DNA from: Candidatus Nomurabacteria bacterium RIFCSPLOWO2_01_FULL_33_17
Lineage (GTDB): Bacteria > Patescibacteriota > Minisyncoccia > Phycocordibacterales > UBA9973
Direction of reading: 5' to 3'
Assembly (NCBI GenBank): GCA_001786995.1
Contig: MFUO01000031.1
Coordinates: 1-33,503 of the forward strand
DNA length: 33,503 nucleotides
In this document: positions 187 through 14,635 of the stretch, in pieces
Numbering within the stretch: position 1 is the first letter of the stretch
Layout of the letters: every line of letters begins with the position of its first letter
Program-made: the position numbers and the translations under genes
Notes under the pieces: generated by a model
Databases searched by the model: none
Told to the model about the DNA's origin: nothing
Seen by the model: only the letters and a program-made list of their open reading frames with translations

Positions 187-492
187 TTAACTTTTTTTGG
201 CATCTTTACGCTTACCAGTCTTTGATTTCTTTGGTAAAGCATTCTTTTTTGAACCTTGGATTATTTCCTGTTTAACTAAAAAGTTGTGAACAGTGTCGGA
301 AACACCAGCACCTTCTGCAATGCGTTTTACAACTTCTTCTTTATCTACAGTAAAAAGATTTTGTTTCAAATCATAATTTCCAAGAATTTTAATGAATTTA
401 CCACTTTTAGTGGAATTTTTAGAATCAGTCAAAACCACGCGAAAAGCGGGATTATTCTTGCGACCGAATCTTTGTAATCGAATTTTTAACAT
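187..492 (-). CDS. rpsP: 30S ribosomal protein S16
   Basis: MLKIRLQRFGRKNNPAFRVVLTDS...GKFIKILGNY signature. Confidence 0.97.
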   Translation of the reverse strand: MLKIRLQRFGRKNNPAFRVVLTDSKNSTKSGKFIKILGNYDLKQNLFTVDKEEVVKRIAEGAGVSDTVHNFLVKQEIIQGSKKNALPKKSKTGKRKDAKKS

Positions 493-498
493 AGTGGC

Positions 499-527
499 AT
501 AGTATCAATAATTTAATCCCTAGTCAA
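499..527 (-). promoter_or_regulatory. sigma70 promoter of rpsP, probably leaderless
   Basis: Minus strand reads TTGACT-17 nt-TACTAT-6 nt-ATG. Confidence 0.7.
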
Positions 528-560
528 GCGTCGTTAAATAAGGTAGGATGGAATATATAT

Positions 561-2531
561 ATGAAGAAACATCCACCCCGGCTTACAGCCACCCCTCAAG
601 AGGGGAATAAAAACAAAATAAATAAAAACAAGCAACAAAAAAATAAAAGCCAAAAGCTAAAACCTAACAGCCAACAACTAAAAACCACAACCGGCAAAAT
701 CAGAATGAGTAAATCCGGTAATGGTTTTATTGACCTGCCAGACAATAGCTCGATAATCATACCCAAAGGCATGACAGCCGATGCAATTGACCGCGATACT
801 GTAAAAATAGAAATGCTTCCACCGCGGTTTGGTAAAAAAGGTCTAGCCGGAAAAGTAACAGAAATAATAAAACGCGGTACAACTGTTATTGCCGGTGTTA
901 TTGATTGTGAAGGTAAAACATTTTTCTTGAAACCAATTAAAAAGCAATTCCCTTTTTTAGTTTATTTAAAGCCAGGGCATTTAGGAATATCTACATGTGG
1001 TACGGCAGCATTGGCTAAAATAACTTCATGGTCAAGTGTTATACCTGGAAATATAGAAGGTGAAATTGTACATACATATGGAACCAGGGGTGAACACGAA
1101 ACCGATATGGCATTAATATTGTCGGAAAGTTTAGAAAATCCAACTTTCGAAAAAGCTTTGATAGACACTGTACACAAACTACCAACACTGAATGAAGATT
1201 TAGCAATCCGTGATGGACGACGAGATTTTCGAGATATTACAACATGTACAATTGACCCGGATACGGCTCAAGACTTTGATGATGCATTATCTCTCAAAGA
1301 ACTACCAAATAATGAATATGAAATAGGTATACACATTGCTGATGTCTCACACTATGTCACGGTTGGCGACGCAATTGATTTGGAGGCATATCGTCGCGGA
1401 ACTTCAATATATTTAGTTGATAGATGTATCCCAATGCTTCCGGAAAAATTATCAAATGATTTGTGTAGTCTCAAAGAAGCTGTCCCCCGTTTGACTATGA
1501 GTACTGTTGTAACTTTAAGACACGATGGTAGTATAAAAGACACTTGGATTGGACCTGGAATAATTAATTCCAACAAAAGATTTACCTATAATGAAGTTGA
1601 CGAAATTTTAAAAAATAAAAAAGGTTTACTATATAAAGAACTAAGAATATTAATGGATCTTGCAATTATTATGGAAAAATCTCGTGTTGCCAGGGGCGCA
1701 TTAGTATTTAACCGTGACGAAGTGCGTTTTGTATTAGATAAAAATGGTAAGCCAATAGACATAATTCGTGAGAAATCAAGCCCATCGCATATGCTAATAG
1801 AAAGCTTTATGCTACTGGCTAACACAATTACAGCTAACCATATTGCCGGACGCAACAATGGTGTAGGTAAAAAAGAAGGTATGTATCGTGTTCATGGTGA
1901 CCCAAATGAAATCGCAGTTATGGAATTAGTTTTATTTGCACGCGGTCTTGGAATCAAAACTCCTGCGCATTTTAAAAAATCAGCTGACATTTTAAAACAT
2001 ATCCAAAAAAGTGTAATCAATTTACCCATTGCCCCAATTATCGATGATATGATTATTCGTTGTCAGGCCAAAGCTCATTATAGTGAAATAAACAGTGGGC
2101 ACTTTGGGCTTGCTTTAAAATCCTATACTCATTTTACATCTCCCATTCGCCGATACCCCGACCTTGTCGCACATAGAATTGTCCGTAATATGCTATTGAA
2201 TAAAAATACTCCATATACTGCCAAAGAACTGCATGCAACAGCCGAACATGCCAGCGAACGCGAAGAAAGAGCGACCGAAGCCGAACGAACCAGTATTCGC
2301 TACAAACAAATTGAATTTTTAGAAAATGCTATCAACACAAATCGCACAGGTATGCTTGTGGGTATGACCGATATGGTTATTAAAATCATTGATACGGAAA
2401 CTGGTGGTATGGTAATTTGCTCTCCCAACAAAATCCGTGTATCTCTTGGCGACTCCATCACATACACTCTCCTTGTCGCCGACCGCTTGCAGGATATTTT
2501 AAGTGGGGAGATTAAAGAGAAGAATATTTAA
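561..2531 (+). CDS. rnr: Ribonuclease R / RNB-family exoribonuclease with a short C-terminal region
   Basis: TIDPDTAQDFDDALS catalytic motif, HIADVSHYV, LIESFMLLAN, HFGLA..YTHFTSPIRRYPDLVAHR. Confidence 0.93.
   Translation: MKKHPPRLTATPQEGNKNKINKNKQQKNKSQKLKPNSQQLKTTTGKIRMSKSGNGFIDLPDNSSIIIPKGMTADAIDRDTVKIEMLPPRFGKKGLAGKVTEIIKRGTTVIAGVIDCEGKTFFLKPIKKQFPFLVYLKPGHLGISTCGTAALAKITSWSSVIPGNIEGEIVHTYGTRGEHETDMALILSESLENPTFEKALIDTVHKLPTLNEDLAIRDGRRDFRDITTCTIDPDTAQDFDDALSLKELPNNEYEIGIHIADVSHYVTVGDAIDLEAYRRGTSIYLVDRCIPMLPEKLSNDLCSLKEAVPRLTMSTVVTLRHDGSIKDTWIGPGIINSNKRFTYNEVDEILKNKKGLLYKELRILMDLAIIMEKSRVARGALVFNRDEVRFVLDKNGKPIDIIREKSSPSHMLIESFMLLANTITANHIAGRNNGVGKKEGMYRVHGDPNEIAVMELVLFARGLGIKTPAHFKKSADILKHIQKSVINLPIAPIIDDMIIRCQAKAHYSEINSGHFGLALKSYTHFTSPIRRYPDLVAHRIVRNMLLNKNTPYTAKELHATAEHASEREERATEAERTSIRYKQIEFLENAINTNRTGMLVGMTDMVIKIIDTETGGMVICSPNKIRVSLGDSITYTLLVADRLQDILSGEIKEKNI
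570..608 (+). repeat. REP-like palindromic element inside the rnr 5' coding region
   Basis: AGCCACCCCTCAAGAGGGGAAT (587-608) is the exact reverse complement of 32567-32588; contains a CCCCTC-AA-GAGGGG hairpin. Confidence 0.8.
646..687 (+). repeat. Degenerate heptamer tandem repeat (x6) inside rnr
   Basis: AAAGCCA AAAGCTA AAACCTA ACAGCCA ACAACTA AAAACCA. Confidence 0.65.
2463..2525 (+). repeat. 63-bp direct repeat, copy 1 (rnr 3' end)
   Basis: 56/63 identical to 3271-3333 by manual alignment. Confidence 0.9.
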
Positions 2532-5863: not shown

Positions 5864-8164
5864 TTATTTCGCTATTTTGGTGGCGTCTGCGAATTCGATA
5901 GACAGGAGCTTGGAGACAGAGTCGGAGTTCATAGTTACGCCGTAGATAGTGCCAGCGCGCGACATTGTCTCGCGATTGTGAGTTACAACGATCAGTTGGG
6001 TGTGGGACGAGAGCTTTTCAAGCATGTCGCCGTAGCGGCGCGAGTTTGCTTCATCGAGCGCCGCGTCGGTTTCGTCAAGAACCAAGAATGGTGGCGGGTT
6101 GACTTGTGAAATTGCAAACAACAATGCAATTGACACAAGAGATCTCTCGCCTCCGGAAAGCATTGTTAATTCTTTAACTTTTTTATTGGGCAAATCAACA
6201 TGAATATTTACTCCCCTTTCAAACTTGGGTAACAATGATTCTTCTTCATCATCATCTAAAGATTCATCATCCAACGAATCTATTTCTAATTTTATATCTT
6301 TTTTAAGTTCAGAAACTAATGACAAAAATGCATTTCCCCCACCAAACATGAGTTTGAAGAATTCAGCAAAAAATACATTTATCTTATCAATACCTTTACT
6401 AAATTCAAGTCGTACAGTTTCTCGCAAATCACTAATTAATTTCAGTAATGATTCTATACTATTATTTAAATCTGCTAACTCTTTGCTCAAATATTCATCC
6501 CTTTCTTTTGTTGTTTCAAATTCAGCAATTATGTCTCCCCCAGATCCACCTCCTATGTCTTCTAATTTCAAGCGTAGCCTCTCAAGAGCCCTTCTTTCTA
6601 TCACTAAGGCCTCTTTACCCAATGGCGCATCAGTTTCTGCATGGTCAAGCGAATTAATCAAAAATGGTTCAAACAATTTCTTTTCTTCGTCCATTAGCAT
6701 CTTGTCTTGCAAAATTCGTTCTAAATCCGATTCTACTTTTGACTTCTCCCCCAACAGTCTTGTTTTCTCAACACGAGCTTTATATTTTTCGGCTTCGCTT
6801 GATCTTATTTGTATTTCTTTATCTTGCAATGTTTTTAATTGTAATTTTTCGTCTACATCCAACAACCTAACCGATTCTATATTTTTTTCTATTTCTTTTT
6901 TTAAACTATCTTCCAATTGTAATGCTTGATTTAATTCTTCATTATTATCACTTAAACTATTTATAGGTTTTTCTATTTTATCTTGTGTATTACCAGAAAC
7001 GCCTTTGTAGTTATCTAAAAAGCTTTTTACTTTTTTACCTAATTCTCGCAAACTTGTAGAAATAAGATGAAAATCTGTTGTTGGATTATTTATAACATTT
7101 TCAAGTTCATTGTTTATCTCTTCACAAAATCTTATAAATTTTTCCCTTGATATAACAACATCCTGATCAACAGAATTGTTTGAAACATGGGGTTTACGAA
7201 AAGCTTCGATCAAACCTTCGGTACGCCCCAATTGCCTTTCTAGTGATTCTCGAGTGCGCAACAATACAGACTTTTCAGCATTAATTCTTTCAATGCTTTC
7301 TTTGATACTAGATATTTCATTATTCTCTAACGCGGGTTCAGGAGATTCATCAGTATTTTTATATAAAGTAAGCTCAGTCTCAATATTGAATAATTCTTTA
7401 TTTAATAAATCATGACGAGTAGAAACTATCGACCTTGTACTTTTTTCATAATGAAAATACCGGCGCGACAATTCTCTGCGAGCCTCTTCGGCTTCATTTA
7501 ATTTTTCTACTTGTTTTCGCAAGAAATTCAAATGTGGAGCCAATTCTCTCCTCGCGGACATTATCTCGGATATATTTATTTTAGATTTTTCTAATTTGCG
7601 CATTGAATCTCGAATACGGATTTCATAAATTCGTAAACCCAGTGCATCATCTATCATTGCGCGTCTTTCTTTTGCACTGGCAGTCAATAGTCTGTCGGCT
7701 TGACCCTGAGAAATTATATGATGCCCGGATGACCCAATATGAACAGATGCTAATAAATCCGTAACATCTTTTAATCTTACTTCGCTACCTTGAATACTAT
7801 ATACACTATGCCCATCAGCATAAAATTCACGAGCAATGCTAACAGTATCAAAATCAAGTGAAATATTTTTACCAATATCGTTCGATAATGAAAGCTTTCT
7901 TTTTTTATTATCAAAAAATATTTCAACTTTAAGTTTGTTAACAGCATTACTTAATTTTGAACCTTTGAATAATAAATCACTAGTGCCTTTACCACGCAAA
8001 GACTTCATGGATTGTTCACCAAGTACAAATCGCATTGCTTCAACAACATTTGATTTACCAGACCCATTCGGCCCAACAATTGCAGTAATTGGTGCATCTA
8101 CAGATATAGAAGACTTTTTACCAAAAGACTTGAAACCATTTATCTCCAAAGTTCGTAAAGTCAT
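5864..8164 (-). CDS. smc: SMC-family ATPase, short form (766 aa)
   Basis: GFKSF, Walker A GPNGSGKSN, Q-loop IISQG, signature LSGGE, Walker B/D-loop FLVLDETDAALD, IVVTH; downstream of rnc. Confidence 0.9.
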   Translation of the reverse strand: MTLRTLEINGFKSFGKKSSISVDAPITAIVGPNGSGKSNVVEAMRFVLGEQSMKSLRGKGTSDLLFKGSKLSNAVNKLKVEIFFDNKKRKLSLSNDIGKNISLDFDTVSIAREFYADGHSVYSIQGSEVRLKDVTDLLASVHIGSSGHHIISQGQADRLLTASAKERRAMIDDALGLRIYEIRIRDSMRKLEKSKINISEIMSARRELAPHLNFLRKQVEKLNEAEEARRELSRRYFHYEKSTRSIVSTRHDLLNKELFNIETELTLYKNTDESPEPALENNEISSIKESIERINAEKSVLLRTRESLERQLGRTEGLIEAFRKPHVSNNSVDQDVVISREKFIRFCEEINNELENVINNPTTDFHLISTSLRELGKKVKSFLDNYKGVSGNTQDKIEKPINSLSDNNEELNQALQLEDSLKKEIEKNIESVRLLDVDEKLQLKTLQDKEIQIRSSEAEKYKARVEKTRLLGEKSKVESDLERILQDKMLMDEEKKLFEPFLINSLDHAETDAPLGKEALVIERRALERLRLKLEDIGGGSGGDIIAEFETTKERDEYLSKELADLNNSIESLLKLISDLRETVRLEFSKGIDKINVFFAEFFKLMFGGGNAFLSLVSELKKDIKLEIDSLDDESLDDDEEESLLPKFERGVNIHVDLPNKKVKELTMLSGGERSLVSIALLFAISQVNPPPFLVLDETDAALDEANSRRYGDMLEKLSSHTQLIVVTHNRETMSRAGTIYGVTMNSDSVSKLLSIEFADATKIAK

Positions 8165-8187
8165 AAAGTTGAAAGTTATAAAGTTTT
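8148..8187 (+). repeat. Short tandem array (AAAGT core x5), left flank of the four-helix-bundle gene
   Basis: AAAGTTCGT AAAGTCAT AAAGTTG AAAGTTAT AAAGTTTT. Confidence 0.65.
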
Positions 8188-8520
8188 AATAAAACCCGAA
8201 AGCATTTTAGATATCTCTATCGACCTTTCACTAAGAATTTCTTTTTCTTTTAAAGAAATATAATTTAGATCAACAGCCAAAGAAAGCATAGATCTAACCT
8301 CTCCACATGAACCTTTGGCAATAAAAAGAAAATTCCTTAATTCTTTATTTGTTTGTCTTTCAAAACCCTCAGCAATGTTATTCATTATTGAAACTGAAGC
8401 TCTTTGAATTTGGTCTCTAAAAGAATAATCTTTTATATTAGAAAAATGTTTATAGACTAAAACAACAAATTCCTTTGCTTTACTCCAAACCATAATGTCT
8501 TCAAAAGATTTTATTATCAT
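8176..8520 (-). CDS. Four helix bundle protein (23S rRNA IVP / TIGR02436-like, structurally related to Avd)
   Basis: SFEDIMVW, DQIQRASVSIMNNIAEGFER, FLFIAKGSCGEVRSML. Confidence 0.92.
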   Translation of the reverse strand: MIIKSFEDIMVWSKAKEFVVLVYKHFSNIKDYSFRDQIQRASVSIMNNIAEGFERQTNKELRNFLFIAKGSCGEVRSMLSLAVDLNYISLKEKEILSERSIEISKMLSGFIKTL

Positions 8521-8531
8521 AGTGTGATTTT

Positions 8532-8580
8532 CTTTATAATTGCTTTATAACTTTATAAACTTTCTACTTTATAACTTCTT
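8532..8580 (+). repeat. Short tandem array (CTTTATAA x4 plus variants), right flank, inverted relative to the left array
   Basis: CTTTATAA ttg CTTTATAA CTTTATAAA CTTTCTA CTTTATAA CTTCTT. Confidence 0.75.
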
Positions 8581-8581
8581 C

Positions 8582-9277
8582 TTAATCAAGCCAATTCTTT
8601 TTTTCTAATGCACCTCGTGCAGCATTTTGCTCGGCTTCTTGTTTTGAATGGCCTTTGCCCTCGGCGACTCTCTCATTCCCCAAGAATATGCCAACAGTAA
8701 AATGTTTATCGTGATCAGGGCCTGTTTCACTAATGACTTTGTAAACTGGTGTAAAAGACATATGTTCTTGTGATTTTTCTTGAATCAAACTTTTTGCATC
8801 CCGCCATAATTTGTTTTTTACAATTTCATTTATATGGATACACAAATTCTTTTCCACAAAAACTTTCGCATTTTCATAGCCTTGGTCTTCATAAATTGCA
8901 CCAACAACTGCTTCAAAAGTATTTGCTAATATATAAGTTCGGGCTTTACCAATATCACGAGTTTCACCTTTGGATAATAACAAATATTCATTCATTTTAA
9001 GATTTGTGGCAACTTCTCCAATTATATTGGCATTAACAAGTGCGCTACGGTACGCAGTTAATTCGCCTTCGGCACAATCCGGATATGTTTTGTATAAAAA
9101 GTCTGTAACGATTAGCTCTATCACTGCATCGCCTAAAAATTCAAGTCTTTCATTGTGACCAATGCCCAGTTTTGTATTTTCATTCAAATAAGAACGATGT
9201 ACATATGCTTGGGTTAGAAGATCTTTATTTTTAAAACTAACACCAATTGATTTTTCAAATTTTGTAAAATCCACCAT
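8582..9277 (-). CDS. rnc: Ribonuclease III
   Basis: HNERLEFLGDAVIEL signature, FEAVVGAIY, C-terminal dsRBD (GPDHDKHF..GKGHSKQEAEQNAA). Confidence 0.97.
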   Translation of the reverse strand: MVDFTKFEKSIGVSFKNKDLLTQAYVHRSYLNENTKLGIGHNERLEFLGDAVIELIVTDFLYKTYPDCAEGELTAYRSALVNANIIGEVATNLKMNEYLLLSKGETRDIGKARTYILANTFEAVVGAIYEDQGYENAKVFVEKNLCIHINEIVKNKLWRDAKSLIQEKSQEHMSFTPVYKVISETGPDHDKHFTVGIFLGNERVAEGKGHSKQEAEQNAARGALEKKNWLD

Positions 9278-9278
9278 A

Positions 9279-10205
9279 CTATTTTTTTGTATTTGTTATT
9301 ATTTCTGTAGCCTGCGCCAAAAGAGGAATAATGTTTTCGTATAAATTTAAACTTGGAATATTCGAAAGTGGAAACCATTGTGCCCCATCAAGCCCCCCAG
9401 ACTTTTCTAAATGTAAATCAGCAAATTCTGCATATCCGAGAAAATATACTACTTGTTTTTTAACTTTACCCTTTATTGGGTGTGATGCAATATATTCATT
9501 CCGTCCTAATTCTTGTTGGATTGTTATATCTATACCAAGTTCTTCTTTAATTTCGCGAATTGCACCCTGCTGTTCATCATCAATATCGTCTACCCCACCC
9601 TTTGATAATGTCCAAAAACCAAAAATATCATGCACAAGTGCAAAATAAACCATATCATTATAAATTGAATATACTACTGCTCCGGCCTTTTTCTCTATTG
9701 GTAATGTATCAGGGTCAACAACAATTGGTGTTTTGTTTCGCTCTTGTATTCTGTGTGCATTTTTACCATGATCCATTTTACCAGGCTCGCCCATTTCTTT
9801 ATAAACTGCACCCAAGACTCCATTAACAAATTTAGGTGACATATCAGACCCAAAAGATTTTGCAAGTTCAATTGATTCATTAATTGCAACTTTGGGTGGT
9901 ACATTGTCACGATCACCAAATAGTAATTCAGTTAAACCAATACGCAAAATATTACGATCAATAATTCCTATTTTTTCTATTGGCCATTCGGGAGCGGCTT
10001 TGACAATAACATCATCCAATATAGATCTTTTGGATAAAATAAGTTTTGATAAAGTCCGCGCAAAATCCGCATCCGGATGCCCAGGTGCAAATTCAACAAT
10101 ATTACGATTTACAATAGATGGAACTTCTTCAATTATAAGACCACGAAAATCCCACTCGAAAAGTGATTGTAGCACGATAGATCTTGATAAATGCCTGTTT
10201 GCCAT
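9279..10205 (-). CDS. nusB: NusB fused to a C-terminal NUDIX hydrolase domain
   Basis: N-half: RHLSR..VLQSLFEWD, IDRNILR, VAINESIELAKSFG, FVNGVLG. C-half: WTLSKGG...GAIREIKEELG Nudix box. Confidence 0.92.
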   Translation of the reverse strand: MANRHLSRSIVLQSLFEWDFRGLIIEEVPSIVNRNIVEFAPGHPDADFARTLSKLILSKRSILDDVIVKAAPEWPIEKIGIIDRNILRIGLTELLFGDRDNVPPKVAINESIELAKSFGSDMSPKFVNGVLGAVYKEMGEPGKMDHGKNAHRIQERNKTPIVVDPDTLPIEKKAGAVVYSIYNDMVYFALVHDIFGFWTLSKGGVDDIDDEQQGAIREIKEELGIDITIQQELGRNEYIASHPIKGKVKKQVVYFLGYAEFADLHLEKSGGLDGAQWFPLSNIPSLNLYENIIPLLAQATEIITNTKK

Positions 10206-12538: not shown

Positions 12539-14635
12539 TTAGATGTCTATATTCGCGTATCGGGCATTGGTTTGAATAAATGATTTGCGAGGTGGAACTT
12601 CGGAACCCATAAGCATATCAAATATGCGATCAGCTTCTTCGGCATCGTCGACACAAACTTGTTTTAAGATTCTATTTGCAGGATCCATTGTTGTTTCCCA
12701 TAATTCTTCGGAATTCATTTCACCCAAACCCTTATATCTTTGAACATGAATTCTATTAGGTCTTAGGTTCAAGGTCTTAGATTCAAGGTTGTTTTCTTCA
12801 TTTTCTGTTTCCTGTTCATCATCAAGAACAACTATTGCTGATGCATCGTTGCCGGTTAATTTATCTCTTTCTTCATCCGAATATGCATAATGAACTTCTT
12901 TGCCCTGCTTTATTTTAAACAATGGTGGTTGAGCAATATAAATGAATCCCCCATCAATTAGTGGACGGAAATATCTGTAAAACAAAGTTAATATCAGTGT
13001 ACGAATATGGGCTCCGTCCACATCCGCATCAGTTGCAATTATGACTTTATGATAACGAAGTTTTGAAATATCAAAAGTATCTCCTATAGCTGTCCCCATT
13101 GCAACAACAAGATTTTTAATTTGCTCACTACCCAGCATTCGATCAAGTCGTGCTCGTTCGATATTTAAAATTTTTCCTCGTAATGGCAAAATAGCTTGAG
13201 TTCGACGATCACGCCCCATTTTAGCTGTACCACCCGCAGAATCTCCCTCTACAATAAATAATTCGGATTCTTCAGCACTTTTTGTAGAGCAGTCAGCCAA
13301 TTTTCCAGGCAATGTCATGCCTTCAAGTGCGCCTTTTCGTAAAACAGAATCTTTCGCAGCTTTTGCGGCTTTGCGAGATCGCATAGCAAGATTTGCTTTA
13401 TTTATTATGGCTTTAGCTTCATCAGGATTCTCTTCAAAAAATGCTGATAATGCATCACCAAAAACTGTATTAACAGCGCCTTGAGCTTCAGTAGATCCTA
13501 ATTTACCTTTTGTTTGACCTTCAAATTGAATCTCACGCAATTTTACAGAAACAACTGCAACTAAACCTTCTAAAACATCATCTCCTGTAAAACCACCATC
13601 GGCTTCTTTAGCCATCCCAGCTTTTTTAGCATAAGAATTAATAACGCGAGTTAAAGCCATTTTAAATCCAGTAATATGTGTCCCATATTCTGGGTTTGCA
13701 ATATTGTTTGCAAAAGCAACTATTCTTGTAGTTACATCATCAATATAACGGAAAACTACTTCTACTTCTACATTTTCATGTTCTTTTTCTACATGAAAAA
13801 TTGTTGAATGAATTGGTTTTTGAAATTCTGTATAATGTTCAACTAAAGATACTAATCCGCCTTCGAAATAAAAAGTTTGACTAGGTAATTCTAATTCTAA
13901 TTCTTTAAAATAAAAAACATCATCTAGATTAGTTTTTTTCTTTGTTAAAACTGAATCACCCCTGCCTACCGGCCAGGCAGGCATTTCTCGCGCATCAATA
14001 GTAGTAATACGAAGACCTTTGACTAAATAAGCTTGTTGTCTAAAATGATGAATAATAGTATTTAGATTAAATTCACGGTCTTTAAAAATTTCTTCATCTG
14101 GCTCAAAAGTAATAATTGTTCCATGTAATTTAGAAGATCCAATTTTTTTAACAGATGCTTTCTTTTTACCTTGCGAATATTCTTGTTCATATTTACCTCC
14201 ATCACGATGAACAATAGCTTGAGTATAAATAGATAATGCATTAACAACTGAAGCTCCGACACCGTGTAATCCTCCTGTCGCTTTAATATACCCACTTTCA
14301 TCTCCACCAAATTTACCTCCGGCATGAAGAGTTGTCATAACAGTTTCTAAAGCCGAAACTTTTGTTTTGGAATGAATATCAACTGGAATACCACGGCCAT
14401 TATCAGCTACACGAATATGATTACCAGGAAGAAGTACAATTTCAATATCATTACATTCGGAAGCCATAGCTTCATCACGAGAGTTATCAAAAATCTCCCA
14501 TACCAAATGATGCAAGCCCTCTAAACCAGTAGAACCAATGTACATCCCCGGGCGGCGACGAACAGGTTCAAGCCCCTCTAAAACACTGATTTCATCAGCA
14601 CCATATTTGCCATTTTTTGTTGTGTCTTTTGCCAT
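12539..14635 (-). CDS. gyrB: DNA gyrase subunit B
   Basis: LEGLEPVRRRPGMYIG, DNGRGIP, GGLHGVGASVVNALS, FEGQTK, VEGDSAGG, PLRGKILN, DADVDGAHI, QRYKGLGEMN. Confidence 0.95.
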   Translation of the reverse strand: MAKDTTKNGKYGADEISVLEGLEPVRRRPGMYIGSTGLEGLHHLVWEIFDNSRDEAMASECNDIEIVLLPGNHIRVADNGRGIPVDIHSKTKVSALETVMTTLHAGGKFGGDESGYIKATGGLHGVGASVVNALSIYTQAIVHRDGGKYEQEYSQGKKKASVKKIGSSKLHGTIITFEPDEEIFKDREFNLNTIIHHFRQQAYLVKGLRITTIDAREMPAWPVGRGDSVLTKKKTNLDDVFYFKELELELPSQTFYFEGGLVSLVEHYTEFQKPIHSTIFHVEKEHENVEVEVVFRYIDDVTTRIVAFANNIANPEYGTHITGFKMALTRVINSYAKKAGMAKEADGGFTGDDVLEGLVAVVSVKLREIQFEGQTKGKLGSTEAQGAVNTVFGDALSAFFEENPDEAKAIINKANLAMRSRKAAKAAKDSVLRKGALEGMTLPGKLADCSTKSAEESELFIVEGDSAGGTAKMGRDRRTQAILPLRGKILNIERARLDRMLGSEQIKNLVVAMGTAIGDTFDISKLRYHKVIIATDADVDGAHIRTLILTLFYRYFRPLIDGGFIYIAQPPLFKIKQGKEVHYAYSDEERDKLTGNDASAIVVLDDEQETENEENNLESKTLNLRPNRIHVQRYKGLGEMNSEELWETTMDPANRILKQVCVDDAEEADRIFDMLMGSEVPPRKSFIQTNARYANIDI
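12754..12788 (+). repeat. Heptamer tandem repeat (x5) inside gyrB
   Basis: TATTAGG TCTTAGG TTCAAGG TCTTAGA TTCAAGG. Confidence 0.7.
13961..13981. repeat. 21-nt palindromic element in frame within gyrB
   Basis: CCTGCCT-ACCGGCC-AGGCAGG; encodes PAWPVGR exactly in codon phase. Confidence 0.75.

Follow-up and report, generated by a model that had tools for sequence, protein, structure and literature searches.

The junction between rnc and smc in this genome almost certainly carries a discrete inserted cassette, a member of a family in which a PF05635 gene is enclosed by two arrays of short tandem repeats (array-gene-array). Taken as a whole, the insert is probably a horizontally acquired cassette of the rRNA intervening sequence (IVS) type, set as a block of 417 nt (from the rnc stop to the smc ATG) at the rnc/smc junction of the nusB-rnc-smc operon (Table 1). 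Positions refer to the window, that is, the whole stretch of 33,503 nucleotides (33.5 kb) that was analysed, in which no rRNA is found by Rfam. The host is an ultra-small bacterium with an AT-rich genome (32.6% G+C).

Table 1. Features of the nusB-rnc-smc locus in window coordinates
Feature	Positions	Strand	Evidence
smc, host gene directly 3' of the cassette, 766 aa	5864-8164	minus	SMC_N, E 9.9e-65
3' (downstream) arm, array	8148..8195	minus	repeat detection and pairing
Cassette gene, 114 aa, PF05635 (23S rRNA intervening-sequence protein / S23p, Avd-like four-helix bundle)	8176-8520	minus	E 1.7e-33
5' (upstream) arm, array of 8-nt units	8532..8581	minus	repeat detection and pairing
rnc (RNase III), host gene directly 5' of the cassette	8582-9277	minus	Ribonuclease_3 and dsrm domains
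nusB-NUDIX fusion	9279-10205	minus	

The cassette gene accounts for the only PF05635 match in the whole genome. Its protein scores 115.5 bits against the profile (cut-off 33.8), covers profile positions 1-106 of 106, and is related to the solved proteins PDB 2gsc (E 5.2e-10) and PDB 2rld (E 1.3e-7). Within the polar core of PF05635 that was scored (Q, R, S, N and E of the SNIAEG region and the later E), Q37, E51 and E74 are invariant in 40 aligned relatives and R40, S44 and N48 are kept in at least 90% of them, and the cassette protein has all of these residues. No known catalytic motif was found in the protein, which thus cannot explain mobility by itself. We know of no function for PF05635 proteins, widespread as they are. 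As the original prediction stated, the family is known from RNase III-excised IVSs of 23S rRNA and has been described as Avd-like, according to the available text of the two reports (PMC4990558; PMC10053308).

That the gene was inserted between rnc and smc, as had been proposed, is evident from the empty sites: in 9/9 other congeneric genomes 6-24 nt separate the end of rnc from the start codon of smc, and neither arrays nor a PF05635 gene are present there. Orthologues of rnc were found in 37/37 genomes searched, and among the 30 rnc loci read smc directly follows rnc in most, in line with the conserved adjacency assumed beforehand, while a PF05635 gene lies between the two in this genome only. 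Seen from the other side, this is the only one of the 57 PF05635 loci read that adjoins rnc, and the adjacency looks coincidental. Of 61 related genomes, G000 among them, 26 contain PF05635 (0-8 copies per genome overall); only one of the nine congeners has it, at a different site. Among contigs from four DNA runs, one contig of this strain runs from smc into the cassette and none joins rnc to smc without it, the apparent joints being foreign contigs that match the arrays only (20-29 nt per side). Such clean presence and absence is also what would be seen if the cassette moved solely as DNA, the arrays lying subterminally as protein-binding sites in a transposon-like element with inverted ends (4-5 sites per end), the protein flagging these ends for a recombination or repair enzyme of the host, and the RNA stem being a by-product. 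This explanation appears improbable. The sole ORF is the PF05635 gene, and no transposase, recombinase or nuclease is encoded; furthermore, comparison with six of the nine empty sites in congeners shows no target-site duplication, although one could be hidden, since the native spacer and the initial codons of smc were replaced here.

Both arms repeat a single 8-nt unit, whose core is AAAGT, in opposite orientations. Tandem Repeats Finder reports period-8 arrays at 8156-8189 (unit TAAAGTTA, 4.4 copies) and at 8543-8577 (unit CTTTATAA, 4.4 copies), which bears out the claim of right-flank repeats whose complementary core on the left runs through the stop codon of the gene into smc. The 5' arm, with the sense-strand unit TTATAAAG and three exact and three variant AAAGT-type cores, takes up the gap from the end of rnc to the cassette gene, its first variant unit lying 3 nt from the rnc stop codon. 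In the 3' arm the core reads ACTTT on the sense strand, in five exact copies (plus-strand AAAGT at 8148, 8157, 8165, 8172 and 8180), and the arm spans the last codons and the stop (8176-8178) of the cassette gene, an 11-nt spacer and the start of smc. The smc ATG (8162-8164) and codons 2-6 are array sequence, and the N-terminus of the protein reads MTLRTLE, versus the MLKSIE type in the six congeners compared.

That these arrays are chance low-complexity sequence in so AT-rich a genome can practically be dismissed. Exact CTTTATAA is indeed not over-represented across the window (8 found versus a mean of 5.1 expected), but five of the eight copies gather at the two flanks (8532, 8543, 8551 and 8567 on the plus strand, 8176 on the minus strand). 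The triple-core pattern, defined as three AAAGT cores with 2-4 nt between them, is matched four times in the window, in each case at one of the two flanks, against a mean of 0.01 in 100 shuffles, none of which (0/100) reaches four. Together with the recurrence of the array-gene-array architecture at dozens of homologous loci, described below, these shuffles refute chance repeats.

The arms are complementary over several inverted pairs, namely 8148-8168/8543-8563 (86%), 8158-8177/8558-8577 (90%) and 8173-8184/8566-8577 (100%). In the predicted fold of the transcript (8610-8120), a long-range stem of 35 pairs joins 8578-8542 to 8157-8195 and is found in the MFE and the centroid fold alike; the long-range pairs number 44, with a mean pair probability of 0.89. 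The whole fold has a z-score of -3.6, with 0/100 shuffles folding as well, and the two arms alone are predicted at -33.3 kcal/mol. As suggested earlier for the two arrays, the stem closes around the gene in the predicted RNA, where the smc AUG is paired with 8571-8573 and the stop codon of the cassette gene is paired too. A consensus scan of the minus strand revealed no promoter-like or terminator-like site between rnc, the cassette gene and smc, and on the strength of that scan a promoter or terminator within the cassette was rejected.

The same layout is found across the PF05635 family. Among relatives, the flank-to-flank duplex energy is reached by at most 3 of 100 dinucleotide shuffles in 43/56 analysable loci (this one included) and by at most 1 of 100 in 34/56, while in a sample from many phyla (80 PF05635 loci, 77 analysable, searched with a 14-sequence alignment) the inverted-repeat score is matched by at most 1 of 100 mononucleotide shuffles in 48/77. 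Homologous loci therefore carry arrays, and the gene, present at 1/30 rnc loci, is not stably syntenic; both outcomes favour the idea of a minimal mobile or self-regulating unit put forward in the original prediction. Arrays were detected on both sides in 77/137 loci, mostly with periods of 7, 8 or 9 nt, and when each cognate downstream arm was ranked against 132 candidate partners it came out best for 45 loci and within the top three for 72 (median rank 3). The copies per array have a median of 4.4 (interquartile range 3.7-4.7), with 4-5 copies in 63/93 upstream arrays; the entries of the solved relatives 2gsc and 2rld contain five chains each, and a Xanthomonas relative is reported as a homopentamer in the available text (PMC4990558). 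A role of the arrays as three-frame stop-codon insulators was rejected, with stops in all frames in only 31/93 upstream arrays. In the literature searched, no description of this cassette type outside rRNA was found.

The orientation of the cassettes bears on whether they act as DNA or as RNA. Neighbours are co-oriented with the PF05635 gene in 42/46 assignable cases upstream and 43/45 downstream, and upstream arrays show G>C in 71 versus 17 cases, downstream arrays G<C in 79 versus 18. Such a fixed ORF-to-arm polarity and strong co-orientation indicate a strand-specific, transcript-level constraint, which argues against movement as DNA only. By contrast, the G:U excess over A:C that would be the signature of sense-RNA pairing was sought in the arm mismatches and is absent, with 107 G:U-type versus 117 A:C-type mismatches on the sense strand in 75 pooled loci (binomial p 0.55) and 47 versus 42 in 35 loci of relatives. 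This agrees with a constraint at the DNA level or with selection acting on the sequence of the individual unit, and if the unit sequence itself is selected the comparison cannot tell RNA from DNA.

The repeat core is selected for its sequence and follows the protein subfamily. In a tree of 53 proteins, loci with AAAGT-type units form one clade (support 97/90). Core carriers, with at least three AAAGT cores upstream or at least three ACTTT cores downstream, make up 16/28 loci whose protein is at least 50% identical to this one versus 4/100 loci below 50%, figures that are overstated since related loci are not independent. The AAAGT carriers include Bacteroidota, a gammaproteobacterial MAG and Patescibacteria, and their polarity is constant. 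When 12 cassettes of the subfamily were compared (66 pairs, mean amino-acid identity 0.62), the four-fold third positions agreed at 240/761 (0.32), equal to the composition expectation of 0.32. The core is thus kept while synonymous sites are saturated, which shows selection on the sequence of the core itself; the same holds for four other clades. The tracking of core and subfamily across phyla suggests recognition of the repeats by the protein encoded between them, as the original prediction had supposed, although the gene and the arrays are physically linked, so that the association is partly plain common descent. The retention of the core in both arms, and the occurrence of members of one protein clade at unrelated genomic sites, would equally suit an element that moves as DNA. 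In the literature searched, no link of repeat core to protein subfamily was found.

Within the genus, triple-AAAGT matches number 18 in this genome versus 0-2 in eight congeners; the congener G006 has six, of which four are another tandem repeat, in a bin that is 10% contaminated. Elsewhere the pattern is plentiful in genomes without a protein of the AAAGT subfamily, namely G026 (50 matches), G059 (37), G051 (19), G033 (15) and G035 (14), in which the best protein identity to the cassette protein is 45% and of which G059 has no PF05635 at all. Arrays thus need no cognate protein to persist, which contradicts such a requirement and also weighs against arrays that serve solely as the ends of a DNA element. 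Recognition of the arrays by the protein, as judged from these sequence comparisons, accordingly gains from the subfamily link at saturated sites and loses from the abundance of arrays without the gene, and it seems to us evenly poised between holding and failing. In G026, AAAGT/ACTTT arrays enclose different cargo, namely an ORF of 60 aa and a PD-(D/E)XK-like ORF of 174 aa; the latter was rejected as a general mobiliser, being present in only 1/61 genomes.

Gene-less inverted arrays of the cassette's own unit are found elsewhere in this genome, at C3:10873-10940, C3:16060-16150, C3:17544-17640 and C9:705-770. A gene-less hairpin of this unit sits at the tip of helix 40 of the 16S gene on contig C3 and a further one lies about 290 nt upstream of that gene. 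In one congener contig the 16S hairpin is absent between flanks with 100% identity (329 and 238 nt), and both this absence and the existence of gene-less copies are compatible with transfer at the DNA level alone. In several genera the helix-40 tip holds array hairpins with differing units, and in the relative G053 a PF05635 gene and its arrays lie in the 5' portion of a 16S gene. Gene-less copies are thus real on other contigs, but the orphan arrays in rnr and gyrB that had been proposed as footprints are not among them: the array in the RNB-domain ORF (rnr; 609-684, period 21/7, unit AAAAGCC) and that in gyrB (12758-12789, period 14) are coding, use other units and have no inverted partner.

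Gene-less inverted arrays also occur between rnc and smc in G012 and G013. Together with the abundance of AAAGT arrays in G026, G059 and other genomes without the cognate gene, the other cargo in G026, and the occupation of one 16S site by different units in several genera, they would suit an independent host repeat family (REP/MITE-like, or RNA-processing or terminator stems) that is read by a host factor and has the four-helix-bundle gene as a frequent but not specifically related cargo or neighbour. The probability of such a host family seems small to us, since the core tracks the subfamily across phyla with differing host factors, is kept despite saturated synonymous sites, and within the genus forms the triple pattern frequently only in the gene-bearing genome, and since most of the sampled PF05635 genes are flanked by arrays.

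Returning to the reading as an IVS-type cassette, its operation would involve the following steps. The cassette would be co-transcribed with rnc and smc, and pairing of its arms in the transcript would give a stem of about 35 bp, with the smc start codon buried in it. RNase III, encoded next door, may then cut the stem as it does with rRNA IVSs, splitting the rnc, cassette and smc messages; by analogy with those IVSs, such processing is plausible to a degree just short of even. The cassette protein probably forms a pentameric ring, as its solved relatives do, and may bind the 4-5 cores lined up in its arrays, which would serve either the control of the cassette or its spread. A bolder extension, in which the ring is a sequence-specific reader with one core per subunit and the cassette propagates itself without a transposase of known type, seeding gene-less hairpins into mRNAs and rRNAs and spreading across phyla with a subfamily-specific repeat code, strikes us as unlikely. 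In that scheme the cassette might move through RNA that RNase III has excised, with the help of a reverse transcriptase resident in the genome. The genome has three reverse transcriptases, each with its own Avd-like partner.

PF05635 proteins and heptamer-type tandem repeats between bacterial genes, a long-noted and unexplained oddity, would become one testable problem instead of two puzzles if the repeats and the protein form one cassette, with the repeat core as the binding site that corresponds to each protein subfamily. The locus offers a clean natural experiment, with nine empty congeners, a single gene copy and gene-less copies of the unit in 16S. Moreover, the insert adjoins the gene for RNase III, which cuts such stems in rRNA, and the predicted stem buries the start codon of smc, an essential chromosome-segregation gene. 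For annotation, it is relevant that such cassettes rebuild the starts of downstream genes and add stems within operons and rRNA genes.

Several known systems resemble the cassette in part. TRAP forms a ring in which each subunit binds one short RNA repeat, and it serves as a working analogy for a ring of identical subunits with a matching number of short repeats at even spacing (4-5 units, and five chains in 2gsc and 2rld), but it has no homology to PF05635. Correia, REP and ERIC elements are bacterial MITEs or palindromic intergenic repeats; like these, the cassette family includes short gene-less hairpins between genes, with which they would be co-transcribed, and a gene-carrying version, and as in DNA transposons and MITEs there are several copies per genome, some of them gene-less. 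Unlike MITEs, the arms consist of 4-5 tandem units of 7-9 nt rather than unique terminal repeats, and the gene-carrying cassette has no transposase and no target duplication was seen. The cyanobacterial STRR resemble the arrays as tandem 7-nt units between genes. Over-represented tandem 7-nt units between genes are described for Xanthomonas and Nostoc, and in Xanthomonas 70-75 convergent pairs of heptamer arrays are potential stem-loops (PMC4692102). The available text of that report discusses G-quadruplexes and states no link to a protein or to an S23p-type gene, which differs from the present case and would suit a repeat family belonging to the host (PMC4692102). The Avd protein of diversity-generating retroelements is a homologous small four-helix-bundle protein, according to the available text (PMC10053308), but the rnc-smc locus has neither a reverse transcriptase nor a template/variable repeat pair, and no direct repeat of more than 19 nt was found in 8050-8680. 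The three RVT_1 genes of the genome lie on contigs C5, C1 and C35, each accompanied by an adjacent ORF (about 121 aa) and a repeat pair of its own, and the cassette protein was rejected as the Avd of one of them.

The closest known system is the ORF-bearing, RNase III-excised IVS of 23S rRNA, for which the available text names Coxiella burnetii, Leptospira, Brucella and Xanthomonas (PMC4990558). The rnc-smc copy differs in lying between two protein-coding genes of an operon rather than in rRNA, and in supplying the start codon and first codons of smc; moreover, excision by RNase III was shown for the Coxiella IVS, which is cut in vitro at the first repeat (PMC4990558, available text), and would apply to the rnc-smc cassette by inference. 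The same text describes the Coxiella IVS as an S23p ORF with a 28-bp terminal stem and tandem heptamers before the ATG (PMC4990558), and the rnc-smc cassette shares with such IVSs the sporadic distribution, the PF05635 family protein in the loop, the inverted termini that form a long stem (about 35 bp predicted here), and the tandem repeats before the ATG, here 4.4 copies of an 8-nt unit that end 22 nt upstream of it.

The cassette between rnc and smc consists of a 114-aa PF05635 (S23p, Avd-like four-helix-bundle) gene and two arrays of one unit in opposite orientations, with the core AAAGT upstream and its complement ACTTT downstream (see table). The original observation of repeats flanking this gene is confirmed: exact CTTTATAA has eight matches in the window, five of them at the two flanks, and a triple AAAGT core with gaps of 2-4 nt has four window matches (0.01 expected), all at the flanks. 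The downstream array overlaps the final codons and the stop codon of the cassette gene, and the first six codons of smc, its start codon among them, also lie in this array. As to the neighbouring genes, the nusB-NUDIX ORF encodes 308 aa, with a NusB domain at residues 7-136 and a NUDIX hydrolase domain at 178-290, and the SMC protein has 766 aa (SMC_N profile match at residues 3-751), much shorter than the ~1,200 aa typical of bacterial SMC. In-frame tandem repeats also occur in gyrB and at the N-terminus of an RNase R-like ORF; these had been proposed as footprints of such cassettes, a claim we abandon, since both repeats are coding, have no inverted partner and are built of units other than those of the cassette.

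Features of the rnc-smc locus, of the rest of the same genome (G000) and of a related genome (G026)
Feature	Position	Strand	Note
nusB-NUDIX fusion	9279-10205	-	directly upstream of rnc
rnc	8582-9277	-	gene call and domain search
Cassette gene (PF05635)	8176-8520	-	
smc	5864-8164	-	gene call and domain search
Period-8 array TAAAGTTA	8156-8189		Tandem Repeats Finder
Period-8 array CTTTATAA	8543-8577		Tandem Repeats Finder
gyrB repeat	12758-12789		period 14
RNB-domain ORF	561-2531		repeat at 609-684, period 21/7
Gene-less hairpin	C3:10873-10940		~200 nt downstream of RNase P RNA, beyond terminator-like hairpin
Gene-less hairpin	C3:16060-16150		within 16S rRNA gene, tip of helix 40
Gene-less hairpin	C3:17544-17640		~290 nt upstream of 16S 5' end
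Gene-less hairpin	C9:705-770		between two co-oriented genes
RVT_1 genes	C5:3-1249, C1:5244-6681, C35:10509-11858		one cut by contig end
G026 cargo: 174-aa PD-(D/E)XK-like ORF	L124 (G026:C7:23300-24500) 330-925		PF11645, E 1.6e-5, just under cut-off
G026 cargo: 60-aa ORF with terminator hairpin	L123 (G026:C16:2500-3700) 348-845		

The rnc search of 37 related genomes gave 38 matches, of which 30 were fetched to compare the site. In all nine congeners (genomes of the same genus) the rnc stop lies 6-24 nt from the smc ATG, without arrays or an extra gene, compared with 417 nt in G000 (558 kb, 32.6% G+C, estimated 82% complete, candidate-phyla-radiation type), of which the window is contig C31, and a PF05635 gene is absent from this site in the other 29 rnc loci fetched, so that the cassette gene is indeed an insert and not stably syntenic. 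SMC begins with MTLRTLE in G000 versus MLK(S/A)(I/L)E in the six congeners compared, so that the array has replaced the native smc start and rebuilt a similar one. Two of the 29 loci, both from other genera, have rnc-smc spacers of 149 nt (L051, genome G013) and 167 nt (L049, genome G012), with gene-less inverted arrays of other units and a small G+C-rich hairpin. The G013 unit (TTAGTCA type) resembles that of one of its own PF05635 cassettes (L032); the G012 unit shows no such resemblance to the PF05635 cassettes of its genome.

PF05635 is present in 26 of the 61 related genomes, G000 included, with 0-8 copies each, and in one of the nine congeners. Flanks were read at 57 of 59 places (two below the cut-off were dropped), and by eye inverted arrays of a 7-9-nt unit, which varies among loci, abut the ORF at nearly all 57; in genome G053 gene and arrays lie within the 5' part of the 16S rRNA gene. 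The duplex energy of the 80-nt flanks is reached by at most three of 100 dinucleotide shuffles at 43 of the 56 analysable loci, and by at most one at 34; for the G000 cassette it is -28.0 kcal/mol versus a shuffle mean of -19.7, reached by one shuffle in 100. A wider sample of 80 PF05635 loci (Bacteroidota, Patescibacteria, Verrucomicrobiota, Acidobacteriota, Planctomycetota, Proteobacteria, Chloroflexota, Gemmatimonadota, Firmicutes and others) gave a flank inverted repeat matched by at most one of 100 mononucleotide shuffles in 48 of 77 analysable loci. Across 137 loci, Tandem Repeats Finder detected arrays of period 6-10, most commonly 7, in 93 of 135 upstream and 107 of 134 downstream flanks, and on both sides at 77 of the 137, while the cognate downstream arm ranks best among 132 possible partners at 45 loci and in the top three at 72. 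The gene is co-oriented with its upstream neighbour in 42 of 46 assignable cases and with its downstream neighbour in 43 of 45 (strand unassignable in 11 and 12, respectively). Homologous loci thus carry inverted arrays, as had been anticipated, both in the related genomes and in the wider sample, and the G000 cassette is one more case of a widespread array-gene-array layout.

Of the 57 PF05635 proteins, 53 went into a maximum-likelihood tree, from which we excluded two sequences with internal stops and two that are truncated. The tree places the G000 protein in a clade of eight (support 97/90) whose loci carry AAAGT-type units, the flanks of one member (L083) being degenerate; other clades have their own repeat units. 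The closest relatives in the wider sample (54-65% identical), from Bacteroidota, a gammaproteobacterial MAG, other Patescibacteria and a 'Tenericutes' MAG, have AAAGT arrays too, with constant polarity (AAAGT upstream on the sense strand, ACTTT downstream). At least three cores on a side were found at 16 of 28 loci with a protein at least 50% identical to that of G000, and at 10 of 12 when identity is at least 55%, versus 4 of 100 below 50%. Taken alone, this association could reflect common descent, given that related loci do not count as independent cases and that the arrays are linked to the gene. However, 66 pairwise comparisons of 12 subfamily cassettes, at a mean amino-acid identity of 0.62, show agreement at 240 of 761 four-fold third positions (0.32), exactly the level expected from composition (0.32). 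Neutral sites are thus randomised, and yet the 5-nt core is kept in the flanks and the bases between cores vary, which speaks against plain descent as the source of the association. Four other clades show four-fold agreement of 0.27-0.32 versus 0.25-0.29 expected, with 5-mers shared by 4/7, 5/5, 4/7 and 4/6 loci. On these sequence comparisons the core itself, beyond mere complementarity of the arms, is evidently under selection and is apparently read by a factor differing between subfamilies of the protein, for which the cassette protein would be the simplest candidate. Three comparative results sharpen the hypothesis that the cassette protein reads its own repeats, and the G000 rnc-smc locus is unusually clean.

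The predicted fold of the operon transcript has a 35-pair stem (8578-8542 with 8157-8195) that contains the smc AUG and the stop codon of the cassette gene, and no promoter-like or terminator-like site was found between rnc, the cassette gene and smc. The arrays are polar, with G exceeding C upstream in 71 versus 17 cases and C exceeding G downstream in 79 versus 18. The Coxiella IVS (intervening sequence) carries an S23p ORF and is closed by a 28-bp terminal stem; three tandem heptamers precede its ATG, and RNase III cuts it in vitro at the first repeat (PMC4990558). The stem, the site-less junctions, the co-orientation, the array polarity and this precedent count for a role at the RNA level. 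Arm mismatches show no G:U excess (107 G:U-type versus 117 A:C-type at 75 loci, p 0.55), which tells against a purely RNA-level role. This balance agrees with pairing at the DNA level or else with selection acting on the sequence of the single unit; if the latter, the G:U test is uninformative. For the mechanism, both RNase III processing and the mode of spread, we infer rather than observe.

The median copy number of the arrays is 4.4 upstream (interquartile range 3.7-4.7) and 4.3 downstream, with 4-5 copies in 63 of 93 upstream and 58 of 107 downstream arrays, and 2gsc and 2rld, solved relatives found by sequence, have five chains per entry. By analogy with the ring protein TRAP, where repeat units are matched to subunits, one repeat unit per protein subunit is an attractive model. 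The Xanthomonas protein is described as a homopentameric toroid (PMC4990558). With 30-35 bp, the arms would equally make a suitable substrate for RNase III.

The cassette gene is the sole PF05635 gene of the G000 genome, and gene-less AAAGT/ACTTT hairpins occur at four other places. At the helix-40 tip, the corresponding contig of congener G006 is without 91 nt, its 16S flanks being 100% identical over 329 and 238 nt; an AAAGT hairpin is also found there in G039, other-unit hairpins in G045 and G041, and a ~300-nt insert in G013, and the hairpin is absent in five other genomes examined. Array hairpins with differing units have landed repeatedly at this tip (L209-L219), across several genera. 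Downstream of 16S on the same contig (L002, contig coordinates 15024-15536) are a LAGLIDADG-like ORF of 143 aa (motif by eye) and an Rfam match to group-II-intron D1-D4 exactly at the gathering score (35 bits); for 23S rRNA no match was reported on the searched part of C3. Four tandem AAAGT cores in the trmD coding sequence (C30:1118-1144, L004) encode IKYKVKSYKV and have no inverted partner; they may be due to chance or be an array absorbed into the gene. Separately, three RVT_1 genes (314-347 aa), each with an adjacent 121-122-aa ORF and a nearby 98-130-nt repeat pair of 84-92% identity, look like three diversity-generating retroelements in this 558-kb genome.

G000 has 18 matches to the triple-AAAGT pattern, against 0-2 in eight of its congeners; the ninth, G006, has 6, four of them from an unrelated tandem repeat, in a bin that is 10% contaminated. 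At order level, the link of AAAGT arrays to the AAAGT-clade gene is uneven: of seven genomes in which such a gene is present, six show 13-23 matches and G045 only three, all at its own gene's flanks, and many matches occur without such a gene in G026 (50), G059 (37, no PF05635 whatever), G051, G033, G035 and G016. G026, with ~30 AAAGT-array sites and no AAAGT-subfamily gene, has two other cargoes bracketed by inverted arrays, and the PD-(D/E)XK-like ORF was found in one of the 61 genomes. Arrays can thus persist, and perhaps spread, without their cognate protein. In groundwater and soil metagenome contigs (runs X6-X9), summed depth at 8113-8226 and 8512-8625 is up to 589 at the arrays versus ~3-15 at the flanking genes; as this depth comes from many other contigs matching the arrays only, AAAGT-array hairpins are common in those communities.

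To our knowledge, IVSs with S23p ORFs have been described in rRNA alone. A survey from 2024 of insertions in CPR rRNA notes 23S_rRNA_IVP ORFs in those of 16S as well as of 23S and considers short non-intron insertions 'probably' of IVS type (PMC11270868), and heptamer arrays in convergent pairs are described from Xanthomonas, with no link to a protein in the available part of that paper (PMC4692102). The literature search returned no paper on PF05635 cassettes that have arrays as arms and lie between protein-coding genes, and none linking the repeat unit to the PF05635 protein. The G000 cassette is a real, discrete and acquired element, which is otherwise of IVS type but differs from the rRNA IVSs in being lodged in an mRNA operon.
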